Shown here piece by piece: positions 14,430 through 44,042 of a stretch of 64,000 nt of DNA; position 1 is the first letter of the stretch; every line of letters starts with the position of its first letter. The notes below the pieces were generated by a model. That model was not told the origin of the DNA. It saw only the letters and a program-made list of their open reading frames with translations, and did not search any database. Location: assembly GCA_014297435.1 (NCBI GenBank), contig JACOQA010000004.1:1-64000 (forward strand), given 5' to 3'. The DNA is from Candidatus Nanohaloarchaea archaeon. Its GTDB lineage: Archaea; Nanohalarchaeota; Nanosalinia; Nanosalinales; Nanosalinaceae. The position numbers were made by a program, and so were the translations under genes.

Positions 14430-14666
14430 ATGGAAGAGACAAAGATGGCGAAGTGCGTTTTCTGCGGTGAGAATGCCACAAAGAAGAACAAGAAGGGACA
14501 GCCAGTCTGTAAAGAACACAGGAAGAAAGAGCCCAGAGATGTTGCATGTCCTGAATGTGGCATGCCTATGAAGATTAAAGAAGGTCGTTACGGTTTCTTC
14601 TGGGGCTGTGAAGGGTACCCTCAATGCGACAAAACGTTCCAGGTAGAAGACTTAATAGAGGACTAA
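14430..14666 (+). CDS. Stand-alone topoisomerase-type C4 zinc-ribbon protein
   Basis: CPECGMPMKIKEGRYGFFWGCEGYPQC plus N-terminal CxxC...CxxH; start may be ATG 14445. Confidence 0.85.
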   Translation: MEETKMAKCVFCGENATKKNKKGQPVCKEHRKKEPRDVACPECGMPMKIKEGRYGFFWGCEGYPQCDKTFQVEDLIED

Positions 14667-15109
14667 CGCCTTTTATCTAATTCTGCGGGTTCTTCAATCT
14701 GCAGCCATTCTTCGGAGTTATCCTGATTGTATATCATAAAATTGCCGGCGGCGACCATTTCCCTGACCTTCCCATCTGCACTCCCTTTCTGTCCAACGTA
14801 GTCCCACTCCTGACCTGGTTCTTCAACACCTGAATCTTCTAGGAGTCCGTCGTCGTTTGCTGCTAGTTTGTATGCGGCCTCCTCTAGACCTGATTTTGTA
14901 GGTTCAAAGTTGTAGCACTCCATCCGCGAAGCGTTGAAGAGGAAAGGTCCTTCAGCCGTCTCGAAAATACTTAGATACTGGTCTTCTAGAGAAGAAAGAA
15001 CTGTTTCGCTGTAGTCTACTCCTATTTCCTCGGCGTATGTTCGAGGTTTAATCTGCTCATTATTAGCGATTTGGTCTAGTTCGACTCTCCAGACCTCGTT
15101 CTCGTCCAT
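14663..15109 (-). CDS. Hypothetical protein
   Basis: 148-aa acidic ORF; C-terminal MIYNQDNSEEWLQ resembles a small haloarchaeal domain. Confidence 0.7.
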   Translation of the reverse strand: MDENEVWRVELDQIANNEQIKPRTYAEEIGVDYSETVLSSLEDQYLSIFETAEGPFLFNASRMECYNFEPTKSGLEEAAYKLAANDDGLLEDSGVEEPGQEWDYVGQKGSADGKVREMVAAGNFMIYNQDNSEEWLQIEEPAELDKRR

Positions 15110-15215
15110 ACCGTATAAATGTTAAATCAACATTTAAAAATATTAGTTCTTGCCTGGTAACAACATTTCCTAAAGTTTGTTATTTGACTATTAATAAACA
15201 CCTTTAACCTGCAAA

Positions 15216-15289
15216 GGGTCTGTAGCTCAGCCGGACAGAGCACTCGGTTCCTAACCGAGCGGTCGAGGGTTCAAATCCCTCCAGGTCCG
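15216..15289 (+). tRNA. tRNA-Arg(CCT)
   Basis: Cloverleaf; anticodon arm CTCGG-TTCCTAA-CCGAG; GTTCAAATC T-loop; upstream TATA TTAATAAA. Confidence 0.95.
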
Positions 15290-15296
15290 TAACACA

Positions 15297-16082
15297 CTAA
15301 TCCTCAAATATAGATCTCTCAAGATAGGAATCCAGAAACTCGTCCGGCCTATAAGCCTCCCATTCACCACTCATTTTTCTAGAAACAGAGCTTTTCGAAT
15401 TATCATAACTAACCTCTACACCAGAAAGATCAGATATTCTTTCGGCTATACTTCCTATAGAGCGATGGCTCTCATAAGCCTCAAGCCTTGACCCATTACC
15501 AACTTCTGTTATAGCACTTATGGCGTCCTCAATATGGATGAAAGGTCTCAGCTGGTTTCCATCGCCGTAGACCTCTAATCTTTCACCTTCTTTAGATCTC
15601 TCGGTAAAGCTATCTATAACCCCGCTTCCTGATCCATAGACGTTTCCAAGTCGGACAATCGAATGATTCTCGTATCCCTGTATAATTGATTCTCCTACGG
15701 CGTTAGCCCCCGGATAACTTAACCAATCTTTATCTTGATCAGGATTAACTTGGGCAGCAGAACCAGATGATACATAGACTATCCTAGGCGAACTATCAAT
15801 TTTTCTAGCTTCTTCCAGCAAGTTTTCAGTGCCTTCAACCTCAGGCCATTCCTCTCTCGGAGCTTCACCGTTATTCAGGGTAGCTAGATGATAAACTGTA
15901 TCGAACTCTTCAAGCCGGACAGGTAGATCCGAAGAAGTTATATCGCAGTGCAGGAGCTGGCTTTCAAAGAGTTCAGAGCCACTTGATCTTGATATGCCTA
16001 GCGAATTGTCCTCTAGACGAACAGAAAGTTCAGGTCCAAGATTGCCGGTAGCACCTAAAATTAGATTGGAAAACCTGCCCAT
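15297..16082 (-). CDS. NAD-dependent epimerase/dehydratase family (extended SDR), degenerate
   Basis: ILGATGNLG, VYHLA, YVSS, RLGNVYG, GDGNQLRPFIHIED; catalytic YxxxK reads YPGAN. Confidence 0.8.
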   Translation of the reverse strand: MGRFSNLILGATGNLGPELSVRLEDNSLGISRSSGSELFESQLLHCDITSSDLPVRLEEFDTVYHLATLNNGEAPREEWPEVEGTENLLEEARKIDSSPRIVYVSSGSAAQVNPDQDKDWLSYPGANAVGESIIQGYENHSIVRLGNVYGSGSGVIDSFTERSKEGERLEVYGDGNQLRPFIHIEDAISAITEVGNGSRLEAYESHRSIGSIAERISDLSGVEVSYDNSKSSVSRKMSGEWEAYRPDEFLDSYLERSIFED

Positions 16083-16141
16083 CAAACTGTCGGTTCTATC
16101 CAAACAATAAATATCTCAAACCAGAGTACTAATTATTATCT

Positions 16142-16723
16142 ATGAGGCTAGATGTCCCGTTTCATAGACAGGAGTCCGACTATGACTGCGGTCCGGCAGC
16201 ACTGAAAATGGCCTTAGACTTCTTCGGAGACAGTAAATCGATGTCGGAAATAAAAGACCTATTGGAATATTCAGAGGGCGACGCAGTATTCACAGTTCAA
16301 CTCGCCACAGCTGCTGAAGAAATCGGACATGAAGTAGAGTTCTATACGGCTGAGCCCGACAACGATCACGATGACAAAGAGTTCCATAGAGAACATGCTG
16401 TAGACAAGGAGAACGGCGAACTTTACAGGGAAGCTGAAGATGCCGGGACCGAATTAAAATTCGAATCTATATCGCTCGAGGAGATCAAAAAGAGACTTAG
16501 AGAGGGCGAGCTTCCGATCGTGCTGGTTGACTGGAATATACTGAAAGACAGGGAAGGATATCAAGGCCATTTCTTGCCATTTGTAGGTTTCGAAAGTGGG
16601 AAGGTTCTTGTACATAATCCCGATGCCGAGGATGGATCTTACATGGAGATAGAAGAGGAAATGTTCGAAGAAGCCAGGAAAGCTGATGGCACAGATCAGG
16701 ATATTGCTTTAATCAAGAAATAA
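16142..16723 (+). CDS. Peptidase C39-like cysteine protease
   Basis: VPFHRQESDYDCGPAAL, GHFLPFVG, VHNP. Confidence 0.85.
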   Translation: MRLDVPFHRQESDYDCGPAALKMALDFFGDSKSMSEIKDLLEYSEGDAVFTVQLATAAEEIGHEVEFYTAEPDNDHDDKEFHREHAVDKENGELYREAEDAGTELKFESISLEEIKKRLREGELPIVLVDWNILKDREGYQGHFLPFVGFESGKVLVHNPDAEDGSYMEIEEEMFEEARKADGTDQDIALIKK

Positions 16724-34463: not shown

Positions 34464-34667
34464 ATGGGACGTGTAAGACCTACATACATCAAGAGACTTG
34501 CAAAAGACCTGGTAGAAGCCGATCCTGAAAGCTTCTCAGAGGAGTTCGAAGAGAACAAAGAAGAACTAAATGATAAAGCAGATTTCAAGTCGAAGAAGCT
34601 AAGGAACAGAGTAGCTGGGTATATTGTCAGAGTCGTGCAGAATAGAGAAGACCCGACACCAGCATAA
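34464..34667 (+). CDS. rps17e: 30S ribosomal protein S17e
   Basis: MGRVRPTYIKR...FEENK...SKKLRNRVAGY. Confidence 0.97.
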   Translation: MGRVRPTYIKRLAKDLVEADPESFSEEFEENKEELNDKADFKSKKLRNRVAGYIVRVVQNREDPTPA

Positions 34668-36996
34668 TGAAGAATAACTGAACCGTACCTATTCCGGGAA
34701 CTTCTTGAGCTGGAGAAGTAGGATTTGAACTTGTTACAAGGACGGGCAGTTTTTTCACTGTCTTAGTATTGAAATTACGGTTTCTTGTAGTTACTGTTAA
34801 TTCTCTCTCCTCCTGATCATTTGAGGGAGAGTTTGGAGTTACTTCTGCTAGAAATCTTTCGGATTCTCCAGGTCCTAGTTCGAACGCGATGTCCTTCTTT
34901 CCGTTTGACTGAAATCTGCTATTGACTCCGGAAAGATTTAAGAACAGTCTACGCGGATCACTGTAATCAACAAGATTAGTTACTTTAATAGGAACAACCT
35001 TGGTGTTTTTATGAGACGTTACTAATGAGCCGTATTCGTATTCTATGGTTGGTTGAACACGAAAGCTCGATCCGATAACTTTTTCGAAAGAGAAGGTTTC
35101 TACCGTTCTATCAACTCCATCATATACTTCGATTCTCCAGCGCATCTGACCCAAATCCCTCACCTTCCAATCTGTGCCTATCCTGTTTTCATCCGCCACA
35201 GATAGTTTGTCGCCAATCAGAGTTCCATCGTTAGCATTATAGAAACTGACATCAACAGAATCATTGTTTCTATCTTCAACTAGAGCACTGATATCTACTG
35301 GATAGCGGAAGGCATAACCATCGTCCTCAGGATCAGGATTACTTATTACGGGAGGAGGGTTTTCAACGTAGTAATCTTTTTCGTAAACTGATGTAGCTCC
35401 GTTTGCATCTCTTAGACGGAACGTAAAGTTGTACCATCTTTCAGCCTCGTTCGGCACAATTTGACTAGTTAGAAACTTTCTCTGGTTACCCGCAAGATTT
35501 TGCTCATTTAACTGCGCCCCATCAATCTCTAAGTTTGATCCCTCCTTCATGCTGTAAGTTCCATCAACTCCTGAAACTGAGTAATGCTCGACGTTGAAGC
35601 TTGTCTGAAACTCTCTGTTCCAGTCTGGATGGTCTAATTGCGAAGGATCAAAAGAAGAAACTATCTGTGAAGGATAACCAAGCTCGACACGATTGTTTCC
35701 CTCATTAGGCTCCAGTGTTTTGCCATCTCCATACGAAGTTGAATCCCATAGTCCCTTTGGGTCTATATGAGCGTAGATGGGCTCGTTATCAGAGAAGAGA
35801 CTATTTGAGGACGAGAAACTGATATCGAACTGCTGTGATTCTCCAGGATCTAGAACTCCTACTTGTCTTTCTATCTTGGTGCTCCCGGATTGATCTCTTA
35901 TCCATAACTTTCTGGGCTTTGAAGCTGTGTTACCTGAGTTGGTTACTTCTACTTTTATACGGACAGTTCCGTCCGATGATTTTCTTACAAGACTGTGGTC
36001 TGAAATAGCAAAGTCGACGTATTTCACATCCATTTGGTTTGAACTGCTGAAGTCGTATTCTACAGTGTTTCCGTTCGCTTTCTGAATTCTGATATAGGAC
36101 TGACCTGTTTTCCGTGGATAATTGCCGTAAAATGTAGGTCTCCAGACGAATTTCTCTGAATGGATGCCGCCAGATAGATCTAGACCTGAAATTGTGTAGT
36201 CTCTGACATCTCCATAAGTATTTGAGTCCGTAAATGTGTCAAATGAGTGAGTCTGGTCATTGTAAACCGGATGGAGCTGTCCTGACGCTCCTGAACCTGC
36301 TTCCTGCGAGATATCATCAAGTATTTTATCCCAGTCGGTTCCGAAAGAATAGTGAGATCCACCTGTGGTGTCAGGAAGATCGTTCGCTACAGCGTTATAA
36401 CCTCCACAACTGAGATCATCCGTGACTGTGAATACTTTGTATCCCTGACTATCCAGAGTGTCTGCCATGTTCTTTATTGATGAGGGCGAGTGAACTCCCG
36501 CCCCCACAACCAGTATCATGATCTTGCGTTGTCCTGACTGCCAGTTTAAATTGTTTAAAGAGTTTGAAAGTCCCCCCGATGCATCCTCCTCGCAGTCTGC
36601 TCCACCTCCCGCCGAAATACTGTTAACTGAGGACTCTAACGTATTTTCACTTGTAGTGAATGTCTGATCAACAGAGGCTGAATCCTTAAACGTGACTATT
36701 GAACCTCTAGCATCTGAACCTAGACCTTGAAAGAATGACTTGATATTGTTCTTAATCCCATCTATCTGACTTCCCATTGAACCCGTATCGTCGATTATGA
36801 ATGAGACCTGAACAGGTTCTAACTCCTCCACTTCGTATTCAAACGTCGAGTTAATCATCCGTCCCATCACAAATTCGCCATCATCATCTCCATCAACAGT
36901 TGAATGCGACTGGCTCAGTATTTCCGTGTCAGCAGTCGCTGAACTAAGTAAAGTGAAGAGTATAAGAAGTGGCAGAATTTTGCTAAGGGAGATCAT
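34627..36996 (-). CDS. Surface protein: vWA + CARDB/Ig-like domains, C-terminal VPG-TM anchor
   Basis: Signal peptide, MIDAS-like DDTGSMG, VTNSGN...EPNEGNN, EVPGIG followed by a TM helix. Confidence 0.85.
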   Translation of the reverse strand: MISLSKILPLLILFTLLSSATADTEILSQSHSTVDGDDDGEFVMGRMINSTFEYEVEELEPVQVSFIIDDTGSMGSQIDGIKNNIKSFFQGLGSDARGSIVTFKDSASVDQTFTTSENTLESSVNSISAGGGADCEEDASGGLSNSLNNLNWQSGQRKIMILVVGAGVHSPSSIKNMADTLDSQGYKVFTVTDDLSCGGYNAVANDLPDTTGGSHYSFGTDWDKILDDISQEAGSGASGQLHPVYNDQTHSFDTFTDSNTYGDVRDYTISGLDLSGGIHSEKFVWRPTFYGNYPRKTGQSYIRIQKANGNTVEYDFSSSNQMDVKYVDFAISDHSLVRKSSDGTVRIKVEVTNSGNTASKPRKLWIRDQSGSTKIERQVGVLDPGESQQFDISFSSSNSLFSDNEPIYAHIDPKGLWDSTSYGDGKTLEPNEGNNRVELGYPSQIVSSFDPSQLDHPDWNREFQTSFNVEHYSVSGVDGTYSMKEGSNLEIDGAQLNEQNLAGNQRKFLTSQIVPNEAERWYNFTFRLRDANGATSVYEKDYYVENPPPVISNPDPEDDGYAFRYPVDISALVEDRNNDSVDVSFYNANDGTLIGDKLSVADENRIGTDWKVRDLGQMRWRIEVYDGVDRTVETFSFEKVIGSSFRVQPTIEYEYGSLVTSHKNTKVVPIKVTNLVDYSDPRRLFLNLSGVNSRFQSNGKKDIAFELGPGESERFLAEVTPNSPSNDQEERELTVTTRNRNFNTKTVKKLPVLVTSSNPTSPAQEVPGIGTVQLFFIMLVSGLLYSARL

Positions 36997-37001
36997 ATTG
37001 G

Positions 37002-39407
37002 TTAGATAGAACTGGCTCGTTCAAAAGTTCTTCCGTAAGATCCGTAGAGACCTGCTTGAATCATTAAAGCCATTATAAAGATAAAAATAATCTGTATCGA
37101 TCCTATTCCTGGCACCTCTTTCGATGGCGAGACTGAACTAGACTCTCTAACTAACACAGGAAGCTTTCTCACTGTCTCAGTGTTGAAATTCCGGTTTCTG
37201 GTAGTTACTACAAGATTTCGTTTTTCAGTTTTACCTGATGGCGGATTAGGAACAACCTCTATCAGAAATCTTTCGGATTCTCCAGGTCCTAGCTCGAAGC
37301 CTATATCCTCTTTACCATTGGATTGGAATCTGCTATTCACTCCCGATAAATTGACTGCTAGTTTACGTGGTTCACTGTAGTCGACAAGATTAGTAACAGT
37401 CAAAGGAACAACCTTAGTATTTTTATGGGATGTGACAAGTGAGCCGTATTCGTATTCTATGGTTGGACGGACTCGAAAGCTCGATCCGATAACCTTCTGA
37501 AAATTGTAAGTCCGGGTGGTGGTGTCAACGCCGTCGTATACCTCCATTCTCCAGCGCAACTGCCCTAATTCTCTTACATTCCAATCTGCGCCTATGCGTG
37601 TCCCGTCACCCATCGAGAGCTTTTCATCTATCAAATAACCGTTATTATCATTGTAAAACCTGATATCAACAGAATCGTTATTCCTATCTTCGACCATTGC
37701 ACTTAGCTCTACAGGATAACGGAAAGCATAACCATCATCTTCCGGATCAGGATCACTTATAACCGGAGGAGGATTTTCAACATAGTAGTTTTTCTCGTAA
37801 ACTGATCTAGCGCCATTAGGTCCTGTTAATGTAAATGTGAAGTTGTACCATCTTTCGGCTTCATCAGGAACCAAATTGCCTGTCAGAAACTTCCTTCTAT
37901 TCCCTGTCAGACTCTGTTCACTCAAAGGTTGTCCATCAGCTTCAATCTCTGTTCCTTCTTTAAGTTTGAAGGTTCCATCAACCTCTGAACTTGAGTAGTG
38001 TTCTACATTAAAGCTTGTCTCAAACTCGCGGTTCCAGTCAGGATGGTTTAGCTCCACAGGGTTAAAGTTCGAAACCAGCCGAGGCGGATAACCAAGCTCG
38101 ACACGATTGTTTCCCTCATTAGGCTCCAGTGTTTTACCTTCTCCGTATGATGTAGAGTCCCATTCTCCTCGAGGATCTACATGGGCAAAGACAGCTTCAT
38201 TATCCGAGAAAACTGCATTACTGGTCGAAAAATCAAAATTATATGTCTTAGTTTCACTTGGATTAAGAGGAGAAAGATCTCGTTCAATCTTGTTGCCTGA
38301 ACTGTCTACTAATCGGAATATTCTCTGCTTTGATGCTTCATTCCCACGGTTTTCCACAGTCACAGAAACTCGGATTCTGCCCTGTAAATTCTTATTGTAT
38401 TCAACTGAGGTATCAACGATATCAAAATCCACATAGTTTATTTCTCGTCTATCTTCACTCGAGAAATCATAGATCGTTGTATCACCATCCTCGGTCAACC
38501 TGAAGTAAGAGTTACCTGTCTTTAACACCCGGTTCTGACCCTTTGACGTGTAGCTCCAAGGCATCTCAAATGAGTTAGAACCTTCCTTAACGTTCCTGTC
38601 GAAGACGTATTCCTTTTGACCGCTCGAAAGTATATTGTCAGGGGCGTAAGTAAATGATTTAGAGTTTTCAGGCATAATTATATGGAGTTCAGCACTTCTG
38701 TCCGTGCTAACCGCTTCTCTAATTGAATTATATACCTTATCTACTGTTCCGGACCGAGCATACCAACATCTATCGCTATCATCGTTCTCAGATGAGTATG
38801 TAGAACAAGATTCACCGGTAAGCATGCTTTCGAACTCGCCTGTGCATGCACCACTGCCGTACATGATTGCATGTATCTCTATTCCATCTTCTCTTGCATT
38901 GTTCGCTTGTGTGGTAGCGGATCCTCCACAACCATCCCCTAAAACAATCATAACCTGGTTGGGGTTGGAGCCGCCATTCAATGCACTATGACCCTCTGAG
39001 ACTGCTGAAGAGTGATCTGTACCTCCTCCGGAAGAAAGACCATTTATTGCGCTTTTTGCCTTTGATTTACTTGATGTCAGGCTCTGAACTGTGCTGGCTC
39101 CGGATGAAAAGGAAACCACAGCGTTTTGATCGCCCTTTCCGGTATTTGTATTGTCTACATAATTTTTGGCTCCGCTTTGAGCACTGGAGAGGGCTCCGCC
39201 TCCCATACTGCCTGACGTGTCTATCACAAGCGCGGTATCTATAGGCTGATACGTGACCGTTATGTCCCAGTTAAAGTCAGTGGTCAACTGTCTGCCCATA
39301 ACCTCCTCACCTGATATCGAGTAGTCTAGGTTGCTTGCAGGCGCCGAAACCACCGCTGCTAAAAGAGGCAAGAATAACAGAAATAAAATTCCTCTCGAGA
39401 ATCTCAT
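37002..39407 (-). CDS. Surface protein paralog: vWA + CARDB/Ig-like domains, C-terminal VPG-TM anchor
   Basis: Signal peptide, DTSGSMG, GGT, LGDG MIDAS residues; C-terminal part closely similar to 34627-36996. Confidence 0.87.
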   Translation of the reverse strand: MRFSRGILFLLFLPLLAAVVSAPASNLDYSISGEEVMGRQLTTDFNWDITVTYQPIDTALVIDTSGSMGGGALSSAQSGAKNYVDNTNTGKGDQNAVVSFSSGASTVQSLTSSKSKAKSAINGLSSGGGTDHSSAVSEGHSALNGGSNPNQVMIVLGDGCGGSATTQANNAREDGIEIHAIMYGSGACTGEFESMLTGESCSTYSSENDDSDRCWYARSGTVDKVYNSIREAVSTDRSAELHIIMPENSKSFTYAPDNILSSGQKEYVFDRNVKEGSNSFEMPWSYTSKGQNRVLKTGNSYFRLTEDGDTTIYDFSSEDRREINYVDFDIVDTSVEYNKNLQGRIRVSVTVENRGNEASKQRIFRLVDSSGNKIERDLSPLNPSETKTYNFDFSTSNAVFSDNEAVFAHVDPRGEWDSTSYGEGKTLEPNEGNNRVELGYPPRLVSNFNPVELNHPDWNREFETSFNVEHYSSSEVDGTFKLKEGTEIEADGQPLSEQSLTGNRRKFLTGNLVPDEAERWYNFTFTLTGPNGARSVYEKNYYVENPPPVISDPDPEDDGYAFRYPVELSAMVEDRNNDSVDIRFYNDNNGYLIDEKLSMGDGTRIGADWNVRELGQLRWRMEVYDGVDTTTRTYNFQKVIGSSFRVRPTIEYEYGSLVTSHKNTKVVPLTVTNLVDYSEPRKLAVNLSGVNSRFQSNGKEDIGFELGPGESERFLIEVVPNPPSGKTEKRNLVVTTRNRNFNTETVRKLPVLVRESSSVSPSKEVPGIGSIQIIFIFIMALMIQAGLYGSYGRTFERASSI

Positions 39408-41270: not shown

Positions 41271-41921
41271 ATGGAACGAGAATTAAATAAAAGCTTTCTG
41301 AGCAGATCATTAGAAGAAGTCGATCTGCACAATATTGCGCCTCCCCAAAGACTGGGAAGAATAATCAATAAAGATACTAGTCCAACTGATTTTGGGGCAG
41401 ACGAAAGCTTTAGAGGTTATCTAGAGGATTCATCGCGTTATGAAAATGTTCCAAGAACCGGACTAAGATTAGATTTTTGGGATTTTCCCGATCATGTCGT
41501 GGATTTTCTGAAAAGAGAGACTGTGGAAGAACACAGTGATGAGGCAGCTGCAGGAGCAGACCTTGCTGGAAAAGCTATAGAAGTTATTGAAGATTCAAGG
41601 TGGAGGAACTCAGGTTTTTCATGTGCCTTACTAAGCGTGCCTCTTAACGTGCCCGAAACAAAGAAAGTTAACGTAAATCAGTATGCAGGTCCTTCAAAGA
41701 TAGATGTTGCAGCCCCTATACCGGAAGAATATCGTCAGGATGATCGTCTCTCTCAATTTACTGAAGATAATTCAGTAGGGGTGCTAGTGGACGATAATAC
41801 CGTTCTAGCCACTCAACTTGAATATATGATGGACGAACTGGAAGATCAAGGTTACGAATTCGAAGATCTATACCGAATGGGCTTTGAGGAGACAGTAGAG
41901 GGCTACAAGCTTAATTGGTAA
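41271..41921 (+). CDS. Hypothetical protein
   Basis: 216-aa acidic ORF. Confidence 0.7.
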   Translation: MERELNKSFLSRSLEEVDLHNIAPPQRLGRIINKDTSPTDFGADESFRGYLEDSSRYENVPRTGLRLDFWDFPDHVVDFLKRETVEEHSDEAAAGADLAGKAIEVIEDSRWRNSGFSCALLSVPLNVPETKKVNVNQYAGPSKIDVAAPIPEEYRQDDRLSQFTEDNSVGVLVDDNTVLATQLEYMMDELEDQGYEFEDLYRMGFEETVEGYKLNW

Positions 41922-41969
41922 AGGAGTTAAAAGATTCTTCTTCCTTTTCAACCTATAGGTGAACTGAAA

Positions 41970-44042
41970 ATTAAAGACCGCGTAACCGTTACATCCGCAC
42001 TTCCATACATTCACGGCGTTCCACACTTAGGAAATATTGTAGGATCTCTACTGCCTGCGGATATCTTCCACCGATATCTCGACGTAAAAGGCAAGGATAA
42101 CGTCTACATCTGTGGAAGCGATGTCCATGGAACACCTCTCGAACTTGAATCAATCGAAAGAGGTGTTGATGTAGAGGAACTGAAGCAGGAGCAGCACGAA
42201 AAGACGAAGGAAGTGCTTGAAAGGTTCGACATGGACTTCTCAATTTACTCGGATACTGACTGCGAACACAACAAGAAGCAGACTTACGACATGTTCGAGG
42301 AGCTTTACTGCAGCGGTTACATCAAACAGAAAGAACAGAACCTTCCATACTGTTTAAATGATAGAAGATTTCTGCCTGACAGGTATATTGAAGGAGAATG
42401 TCCTCACTGTGGAGGTTTAGCTCGTGGTGACCAGTGCGATGACTGTGGTAAACTGGTTGAACCTCAAGAGCTTGATAATAAGGAATGTCAGATCTGCGGC
42501 AACTCAAACATCGAGTTCAGAGACACGAAACATCTTTTCCTCGACCTAGAACCGTTTAAGGAAGATCTAAATGAATGGATAGATTCAGATCCTGTTCCTG
42601 TGAACATGGAGAAGCAGGTTGAAAACGATATTGCAGAAGCTGAGGACCGCTCAATTACTAGAGATCAGAAGTGGGGATTCGACGTCCCAGTTGAAAGAGT
42701 GAACAAGAGGATCGAAGAAGAGAATCTTGATGTCCCAAAACTTGGCGAAGAGTTTGAGGACAAAGTTCTCTATGTGTGGTTTGACGCTCCAATAGGTTAT
42801 ATCGGGTTTACCAGAGAGCTTTTTGATGATAACGATGAGTGGAAGGATTACTGGATGAATGATAGGAGCGATGTTTTCTACTCGATCGGGAAAGACAATG
42901 CTATCTTCCACACAGTTATCTGGCCAAGTATGCTGAAGGGATCCTCAACAGAGGAAGAGAGTTATACTCTTCCTACATATGAGTTTATCCAGCAGTACCT
43001 TCTGGCTGAGGACACCAAGTTCTCGAAGTCAAGAGGTAAAGGACTGAGTACTGAGGAGGCGCTTGACATGTATCCTTCGGATTACTGGCGTTTTTACCTG
43101 GCACGAAACATTCCATCACACCACGACACGAGATTTGAATGGCAGGACTTTGAGAAAGAGATCAACAACGTGTTAAACGATACTGTCGGCAACTTTGTCA
43201 ACCGTACTCTTTCTCTGGCTGAGAAATGGTTCGACAACCAGGTTCCTGATCCGGAACTAGAAGAGAGGGATGAGGAGATTGTTGAGGAAGCCGAGGAAAT
43301 TGTTCAAGAGTACGAGAGGAAGTTTGAGGAGCATGACTTGAAGGAGGCTCTTGACGAGGCTTTGAAGCTAGCCAGGCTCGGAGACCAGTATCTTTCAGAC
43401 GAAGAACCTTGGAACAATGAGGAAAGAAGAGAGGAAACAATCCATGTTTCAATCCAGTTGTGTAGGGCTATCGGAGCCACTTTGTATCCTTACACTCCCG
43501 AAGCTTCTGAGAAGATCGGAGACATGCTTAACACAGAGATAGATACTTCGGAAAGTGTTGACGAGTTTTCGGATCCTCTACTAGGAGGGGTAAACTCAGG
43601 TCATGAACTAGGTGAGAGAGAAATCCTCTTCGAGAAGATCGATGTGGAGGAAGACCGAGAAAATGAGGATGAATCAGAGGAAGAGGTAAACGATGAACTG
43701 AAACGTTTGAACTCGGAAACAGTCGGCTTTGAAGAGTTCGGAGAAAACGAAATCAGGATCGGAAAAGTTCTTTCTGTAGACGAACATCCTAATGCCGACA
43801 AACTATACAAGATCAGGATTGATGTAGGAGGAGCAGAACTACAGACATGTGCAGGTTTGAAGAACTATTACTCGAAGGACGAACTTGAGAACAGGAAAGT
43901 TGTTGTCCTTGCTAACCTCGAACCTGCCGAGCTTAGAGGAGAGAAAAGCGAGTGCATGATCCTAGTTGCGGAAGATGAAGAAGGGAACGTCTCCTTGTTA
44001 GAGACGGGAGAGGAAATGAAAGAAGGAAGCGAAATTAAATAG
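41970..44042 (+). CDS. metG: Methionyl-tRNA synthetase; non-canonical start (ATT 41970 or ATA 41955)
   Basis: In-frame TSALPYIHGVPHLGN and CGSDVHGTP lie upstream of the ORF-track start 42213; Zn knuckles, YVWFDA, KFSKS, C-terminal tRNA-binding OB domain. Confidence 0.95.
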   Translation: MKDRVTVTSALPYIHGVPHLGNIVGSLLPADIFHRYLDVKGKDNVYICGSDVHGTPLELESIERGVDVEELKQEQHEKTKEVLERFDMDFSIYSDTDCEHNKKQTYDMFEELYCSGYIKQKEQNLPYCLNDRRFLPDRYIEGECPHCGGLARGDQCDDCGKLVEPQELDNKECQICGNSNIEFRDTKHLFLDLEPFKEDLNEWIDSDPVPVNMEKQVENDIAEAEDRSITRDQKWGFDVPVERVNKRIEEENLDVPKLGEEFEDKVLYVWFDAPIGYIGFTRELFDDNDEWKDYWMNDRSDVFYSIGKDNAIFHTVIWPSMLKGSSTEEESYTLPTYEFIQQYLLAEDTKFSKSRGKGLSTEEALDMYPSDYWRFYLARNIPSHHDTRFEWQDFEKEINNVLNDTVGNFVNRTLSLAEKWFDNQVPDPELEERDEEIVEEAEEIVQEYERKFEEHDLKEALDEALKLARLGDQYLSDEEPWNNEERREETIHVSIQLCRAIGATLYPYTPEASEKIGDMLNTEIDTSESVDEFSDPLLGGVNSGHELGEREILFEKIDVEEDRENEDESEEEVNDELKRLNSETVGFEEFGENEIRIGKVLSVDEHPNADKLYKIRIDVGGAELQTCAGLKNYYSKDELENRKVVVLANLEPAELRGEKSECMILVAEDEEGNVSLLETGEEMKEGSEIK

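Follow-up and report, generated by a model that had tools for sequence, protein, structure and literature searches.

In bacteria, infC, the gene for initiation factor IF3, has a conserved AUU or AUC start codon behind a Shine-Dalgarno (SD) sequence; the gene is well expressed despite this codon, its translation is autoregulated, and the design combines a strong SD with a weak codon (PMC5499595; 10.1101/063800). Escherichia coli pcnB, with a non-canonical AUU start, is named as a confirmed case (10.1101/063800), and the gene for eIF1, which takes part in start selection, is autoregulated by way of a weak start, in this case an AUG in poor context (PMC6237735). For archaea, the starts given in the consulted portion of a review are AUG, GUG and UUG only (PMC7531240), and a term search of a review on archaeal recoding (PMC8211752) returned no passage on a start such as the one described below. 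No report of a non-AUG start of metG, the gene for methionyl-tRNA synthetase (MetRS), was found in a literature search whose coverage largely excluded subscription journals and did not extend to supplementary tables. The subject here is metG of a nanohaloarchaeon (Candidatus Nanohaloarchaea archaeon, family Nanosalinaceae, assembly GCA_014297435.1), located in a stretch of 64,000 nucleotides (contig JACOQA010000004.1, positions 1 to 64,000; the whole stretch analysed is called the window). Its most likely start is the ATT at 41970, behind AGGTGA. The non-AUG start of metG is real, conserved and gene-specific.

The frame extends from stop to stop over positions 41931–44042, comprises 703 codons and encodes MetRS. 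A sequence-only reading of the window had stated that an in-frame TAA (41928–41930) bounds this frame upstream, and that no ATG, GTG or TTG precedes the HIGH motif; both statements were confirmed from the sequence, with PYIHGVPHLGN and GSDVHGTP lying in frame 5' of the GTG at 42213. Assignment to MetRS is based on scores above the curated cut-offs for PRK00133 of NCBIfam (625 bits versus 587) and TIGR00398 (463 versus 336), and on the presence of a HIGH-type HLGN and a KMSKS-type KFSKS in the translation. The match to Pfam tRNA-synt_1g begins at residue 19 of the open frame, and residue 3 of the solved MetRS 1rqg aligns to residue 17; the ATT at 41970 is residue 14. Compared with archaeal-type MetRS (PRK00133/TIGR00398; 1rqg), the protein is ordinary in its domains, HIGH- and KMSKS-type motifs and N-terminal register, and the start codon alone is unusual. 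The gene is the sole match in a genome of 998,768 bases which is 99% complete and in which the window corresponds to contig C10; internal Met codons are present in its reading frame. When 1025 called genes were audited with a codon model, metG took rank 1 among 38 that were flagged for coding-like sequence 5' of the first canonical start.

The ATT, 7 nt behind GGTGA, had been one of two candidates of the sequence-only reading, and conservation at the SD-linked site throughout the phylum supports it. The spacing fits the mode of 6–7 nt between GGTGA and start in this genome, which was obtained by a method that cannot show spacings of 5 and 8 nt. The 3' end of 16S rRNA was searched for in this assembly and none was found; the anti-SD was taken from two relatives, G018 and G012. 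GGTGA or GGTGG stands at such a spacing in only 56 of 534 ATG-starting genes of this genome, so in metG a poor codon follows an SD that is among the stronger ones. TATA-like boxes peak at 28–31 nt ahead of leaderless ATGs in this genome, and at 27–32 nt ahead of the SD in metG regions (53 of 60 with a [AG]GGTG match). Because the two distances are equal, the metG transcript probably starts at or just before AGGUGA, and its leader would consist of SD and spacer.

The other candidate, a leaderless start at ATA 41955, has the right distance from the TATA-like box, but the triplet is not conserved, being CTA in a genome of the same genus (G001) and ACA, GCA, TTA or others in further relatives; it was given up, and the gene does not qualify as leaderless. 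CTG 41964, 1 nt past the SD and not conserved either, was rejected as well. The region 41955–42034 folds worse than 189 of 200 shuffles, and a tRNA mimic or riboswitch in the leader was dismissed on this ground. Ahead of metG and of valS, no micro-open reading frame that might act as frameshift sensor was apparent. Programmed frameshifting or control by a leader reading frame, as in prfB, was discarded: the GTG of the SD is the only upstream canonical triplet, and it occurs in all three frames across relatives.

Features of the metG region, with positions in the 64,000-nucleotide window
Feature	Position	Strand	Basis or remark
TATA-like box TTAAAAG, includes the in-frame TAA at 41928–41930	41927..41933	+	Distance to SD in relatives and to leaderless ATGs in own genome
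Inferred transcription start; leader of about 12–15 nt, SD and spacer only	41955..41958	+	TATA distance; the ATA here is not conserved
Shine-Dalgarno AGGTGA	41957..41962	+	Complement of the 3' end of 16S rRNA, GGAUCACCUCC, from two relatives (G018, G012)
Proposed start codon ATT, 7 nt past GGTGA	41970..41972	+	Homologous site ATC, ATT, GTC, TTC or TTT in 49 of 60 genomes
metG, methionyl-tRNA synthetase, 690 aa, with C-terminal tRNA-binding domain	41970..44042	+	PRK00133, TIGR00398, Pfam; single copy
HIGH-type motif HLGN of the catalytic fold	42024..42035	+	5' of the first canonical start
GSDVHGTP motif	42114..42137	+	5' of the first canonical start
First in-frame canonical codon, GTG	42213..42215	+	A start here would lose 81 residues including the HIGH motif

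Of 70 genomes from the phylum Nanohaloarchaeota, 61 gave a match to the N-terminal region of MetRS, and 60 of the 61 fetched 5' ends, from 29 genera, could be parsed (G009 had no motif). These genomes are related to each other; the counts are thus not independent, and no p-value was attached to them. The in-frame codon 5–8 nt past GGTG(A/G/T/C) was ATC in 21 genomes, ATT in 15, GTC in 6, TTC in 5 and TTT in 2, which amounts to 49 of 60 metG genes with a D-T-Y codon (D, any base except C; Y, pyrimidine); codons of this form make up 10.8% of the codons in gene bodies. Three further starts were ambiguous, with a weak codon and an ATG nearby, and eight were canonical (seven ATG, one GTG). One genome, G019, was counted as ATC by way of AGGTGA; a weaker GGTG match upstream would give ATA, and P0049, a database protein, begins at a position of this kind. 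Of the 49 genes with a weak codon, 16 contain a GTG, TTG or ATG in frame further upstream, often the GTG of the SD itself. By a strict count there was no canonical codon at least five codons before SALPY in 33 of the 60, and none whatever in 28. The claim that initiation is non-canonical was thus supported, and comparison of metG starts between related genomes, which had been suggested as a check, placed ATG at the homologous site in two genomes only (G011 and G027), there in the identical position relative to the SD. In a metG tree, constructed by a quick method and rooted at the midpoint, ATG states were found in at least five separate places within non-ATG groups, and the deepest branch carried TTC. 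Judged by this distribution, the non-AUG start looks ancestral for the phylum. Near-identical ATG-started metG genes were present in different genera (L011 of G011 and L072 of G057), which suggests transfer or mis-binning.

The same data bear on whether the codon could be due to an assembly error, a pseudogene, or editing of the third base to G in the RNA. A G in third position would turn any D-T-Y codon into ATG, GTG or TTG, and no read covers the metG start, since the contigs of one DNA sequencing run (word share 0.07) do not reach 41907–42007. However, G001, with 92% protein identity, carries the identical GGTGAACTGAAAATT; because SD, spacer and ATT are the same there, the metG start is not an assembly error. 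The same pattern is found in dozens of independent assemblies, and metG is intact, single-copy and essential. Editing of a pyrimidine to G in mRNA is not known to us. Taken together, an origin of this kind is regarded as extremely unlikely.

The spacer of metG varies between 5 and 8 nt and shifts by single bases, and the distance from start to domain varies between 7 and 19 codons; it is therefore the SD, rather than the protein, that sets the start site. Alternatively, translation could truly start at the GTG within the SD, a near-leaderless GUG, which some genomes have in frame while others would need frameshifting or re-initiation (here GTG-AAC-TGA, 41959–41967). This GTG would lie within a few nt of the presumed transcript start, and it is in frame where the spacer is 5 or 8 nt, i.e., in most genomes of families f3, f4 and f5 and in two loci from outside the phylum (L185, L190; see below). 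Yet the spacers of 5, 6, 7 and 8 nt put this GTG in all three frames, with no common slippery site, and D-T-Y is kept at the SD-defined position even where the GTG is in frame; moreover, G026, G042, G018 and L224 have an in-frame TGA inside the SD. A start at this GTG is considered very unlikely.

Three control genes of the phylum did not share the weak start. An ATG was found in 28 of 28 parsed valS genes (30 loci), despite a similar layout of TATA box and short leader, in 28 of 28 parsed aIF1 genes (31 loci) and in 5 of 5 genes for aIF2-gamma, as against weak starts in 49 of 60 metG genes. Orthologs from this genome, G018 and G012 (950 kb of each of the latter two) were compared in 307, 303 and 287 pairs; for metG alone did both genomes have a long stretch of conserved coding sequence before the first canonical codon, with 44 of 49 residues identical, and the other 14 rows had 10 or fewer. 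An audit of starts in the three genomes, with 520–534 comparisons per genome, flagged 22 rows, of which seven proved on inspection to be an SD followed by ATC or ATT; the others were misalignments, spurious upstream ATGs or shadow and internal matches (13), one ambiguous case and one nonsense break. This audit yielded no credible ATA, CTG or ACG start, the sole ATA row and the sole ACG row being artefacts.

In L421 and L426 (G012) and in L363, L372 and L377 (G018), a GGTG-type SD is followed after 6 nt by ATC or ATT, and an ortholog has ATG. Two of the audit genes with such starts are presumably those for the large subunit of replication factor C and for dihydrolipoamide dehydrogenase. A gene with a T2SSF domain has SD and ATC in 2 of 30 loci and canonical codons in the others, and a RimK-like ATP-grasp gene has ATT or ATC in 4 of 30, a further 3 being ambiguous. 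In the present genome (G000) the former (G000:C8:229480; L289:481) has ATC and the latter (G000:C1:34173-34988, minus strand; L290) has ATT, both shared with G001; the RimK-like gene lies near that for aIF2-gamma. Since ATG is exchanged for SD-led ATC or ATT in a few ordinary genes, translation in this lineage can probably start at AUY behind an SD, with occasional use in ordinary genes. Of all genes compared, it is only metG that is near-fixed for a weak start and only metG that has GTC or TTY.

Three more reading frames of this genome deserve mention. Two of them, G000:C15:544-1113 (plus strand; L291) and G000:C1:70599-71012 (minus strand; L292, whose product has a weak DUF7266 match), show AGGTGG or AGGTGA, 6–7 nt and ATT, with no canonical start nearby. 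A frame of 620 codons on the minus strand of C10, at about 14539–16578 of the window (approximate, from a reverse-strand index of the whole contig with an offset of 47422, beyond the window), has GGTGG, 6 nt and ATC, with an ATG five codons on, and its start is ambiguous; its product resembles subunit I of a V-type ATPase.

Metagenomes were scanned for MetRS of the PHLGN type, which gave 118 parsed matches in 117 loci; the figures that follow hold among the matches listed. An ATG was nearby in 95, one was too short and 22 had none. These 22 comprised 13 eukaryote-like sequences, with extensions or introns, 3 nanohalo-like ones, one plausible TTG and 5 of prokaryotic type which were not nanohaloarchaeal. 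In the five latter an SD-like motif is followed by ATA (L241, L245, L199, L190) or TTC (L185). L241 has an in-frame TAG immediately before the ATA and L199 a TAA five codons upstream; L185 and L190 might start at the GTG of the SD instead. Archaeal-type neighbour genes were present at three of the five loci. The four of adequate length took four separate places in the quick tree, beside relatives with ATG or TTG, and L177, the sister of L190, has ATG at the same SD spacing. From a viral collection, 13 distinct MetRS 5' ends were parsed from 47 loci, all with ATG.

These data are probably best explained by near-cognate initiation by the initiator Met-tRNA (Met-tRNAi) on an SD-anchored 30S subunit, at a weak start which selection preserves because it acts as a throttle or sensor. 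metG would have a TATA promoter of its own and a transcript whose leader contains little beyond the strong SD, and pairing of the SD would position the 30S subunit with its P site over AUU. aIF2-GTP-Met-tRNAi, with the anticodon CAU, would then initiate despite the mismatch in third position, giving full-length MetRS that begins with Met, at a lower rate and in dependence on the stringency of aIF1. GUC and UUY in relatives would be the counterparts of GUG and UUG, under the same relaxed reading of the third position and the usual wobble in the first. For metG in particular, selection may keep the start from becoming strong, so that it caps the level of MetRS or senses the state of initiation in a manner similar to infC; these two possibilities appear about evenly balanced. 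A regulatory role is plausible, as the weak start is a peculiarity of metG and turns up again in other lineages. In E. coli, AUA, AUC, AUU and CUG gave 1–2% of the expression from AUG and other codons 0.1–1%, and green fluorescent protein started from AUC carried an N-terminal Met (10.1101/063800).

Several observations weigh against this explanation. GTC, TTC and TTT (13 of 49) mismatch CAU twice, and the 0.1–1% class into which two-mismatch codons fall in E. coli would be low for an essential enzyme. ATA was never found at the AGGTGA-linked site in the 60 genomes, although it accounts for 34% of Ile codons in gene bodies; it is one transition from ATG and equal to AUU and AUC in E. coli, so that CAU alone would not explain its absence. 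ATG is used in seven genomes, which occupy at least five places in the quick tree, so the weak start is dispensable. Near-cognate reading by Met-tRNAi should weaken when Met-tRNAi is scarce, which means positive, not negative, feedback. Lastly, it is from comparison of sequences that we infer the use of the codon, as well as the reading tRNA, the transcript start and any regulation. The archaeal 30S subunit requires Met-tRNAi for binding leaderless mRNA (PMC7531240), and one may speculate about a route by competition to feedback of the useful sign, in which SD-led metG mRNA would gain share over leaderless mRNAs under shortage of Met-tRNAi.

The initiator tRNA is ordinary, with a CAU anticodon and a GGG/CCC stem (exact loop pattern in 54 of 70 genomes), and an altered initiator anticodon was rejected as explanation. 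So was loss of aIF1, the gene for which was found in 36 of 41 genomes; that for aIF2-gamma was found in 5 of 5. The initiating tRNA could also be an elongator, Ile-tRNA with anticodon GAU or the cognate Val and Phe tRNAs, filling the P site of the SD-anchored 30S subunit when Met-tRNAi is scarce; initiation would then be independent of Met and act as negative feedback. The sign of the feedback would be right, as MetRS would be made when its product is short. AUY, GUC and UUY are the set which a GAU anticodon reads with the first-position wobble that yields AUG, GUG and UUG, and neither ATA nor CTN was seen at the AGGTGA-linked site in 60 genomes. The rarity of this SD among ATG genes, given above, and the need of leaderless mRNA for Met-tRNAi (PMC7531240) also fit.

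However, no initiator-like tRNA-Ile was seen among the tRNAs examined: tRNA-Ile(GAU) has G1-C72 and lacks the three G-C pairs in the anticodon stem, and aIF1 proofreads complexes built with elongator tRNA (PMC6237735). AUY starts are tolerated in ordinary genes, which suggests constitutive AUY initiation; four of the five non-nanohaloarchaeal cases among the matches listed have ATA, which GAU cannot read, and MetRS itself keeps internal Met codons. The elongator explanation is thought to be rather unlikely, and the same low probability is given to the wider proposition that MetRS genes in several archaeal lineages repeatedly traded AUG for codons started without Met-tRNAi on SD-anchored 30S subunits. 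An intron-containing tRNA-Ile(UAU) is present (G000:C1:125776-125926, minus strand; L428 region of G012), and TiaS was not found in the 5 of 5 genomes searched, with no link established to the lack of ATA starts.

Loop 1 of aIF1 reads RSFGK, RSYNK or RTFNK in most of family f1 and RRFGK or RRYGK in f3–f5 (loci L031–L060); a solved archaeal aIF1 carries RRFGK. The N-terminal zinc-knuckle cysteines of aIF1 (G000:C9:141955-142164) are lost in G000, G002, G019 and G003, and G016 has two adjacent aIF1/SUI1 matches (L053; G016:C1:780976-781481). The altered loop in most of f1, whose basic residues matter for 30S binding, would agree with tolerated drift, i.e., lax initiation at SD-led genes and an early loss of the metG ATG with no adaptive role; so would the sporadic ATY starts in unrelated genes and the viable reversions to ATG. 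But families f3 and f4 retain RRFGK and yet show the weakest starts, and the metG start, which has shifted between five weak codons, differs from ATG in 49 of 60 genomes, whereas other genes have ATG in nearly all relatives. The same state also recurs in separate MetRS clades outside the nanohaloarchaea. Drift is therefore judged distinctly unlikely, and near-cognate reading by Met-tRNAi under selection remains the preferred explanation.

Set beside the systems described at the outset, metG resembles infC: both act in the initiation pathway, and both have a conserved, SD-led AUY start. metG differs in that IF3 itself rejects the odd codon and so closes a negative loop, whereas MetRS charges the initiator tRNA upstream and has no known role in codon inspection; furthermore, the metG case is archaeal and includes the two-mismatch codons GUC, UUC and UUU. 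The product of metG is not the factor that discriminates against the odd codon, which in archaea is aIF1 (PMC6237735), a gene with an ATG start. On present evidence, the metG start would thus seem to work like a weak start of the infC type and not to be a member of that autoregulatory class. The AUU start of pcnB acts as an expression cap; to our knowledge it is not conserved across a phylum, and pcnB has no tie to the initiator tRNA. eIF1 keeps AUG, and in nanohaloarchaea aIF1 is ATG-started and the odd start sits on metG.

The start also affects annotation. Among the 120 best database homologs, 54 lacked the HIGH-motif pattern in their first 80 residues; most were called from a downstream start and some are maybe fragments from contig edges. 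As the start codon is non-canonical, metG is systematically mis-annotated. Five proteins (P0002, P0010, P0013, P0076, P0096) begin with Met followed by the residues which follow ATT or ATC in the examined loci, and annotation pipelines seem already to put some metG starts at such codons.

Two observations concern other genes. A small gene (G000:C9:84380-84586, plus strand), which we take to be PspC-like, is split by an in-frame TAA after codon seven and is intact in G018. On the minus strand of the window, 34627–39407, two paralogs stand in tandem; the proteins, of about 800 aa each, look secreted and carry vWA-like DxSxS motifs.

New in this work are the D-U-Y codon rule, the leader consisting apparently of SD and spacer only, the controls, the sporadic AUY starts in ordinary genes and the directly read cases outside the phylum. 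A non-AUG start of metG throughout a phylum, with two-mismatch variants and repeats elsewhere, offers a natural test bed for the judgement of codons by aIF1 and the P site. The weak start is a candidate for a feedback loop which links the supply of Met-tRNAi and MetRS. Should reading by an elongator tRNA be true, it would represent a natural Met-independent initiation serving as feedback sensor for MetRS.
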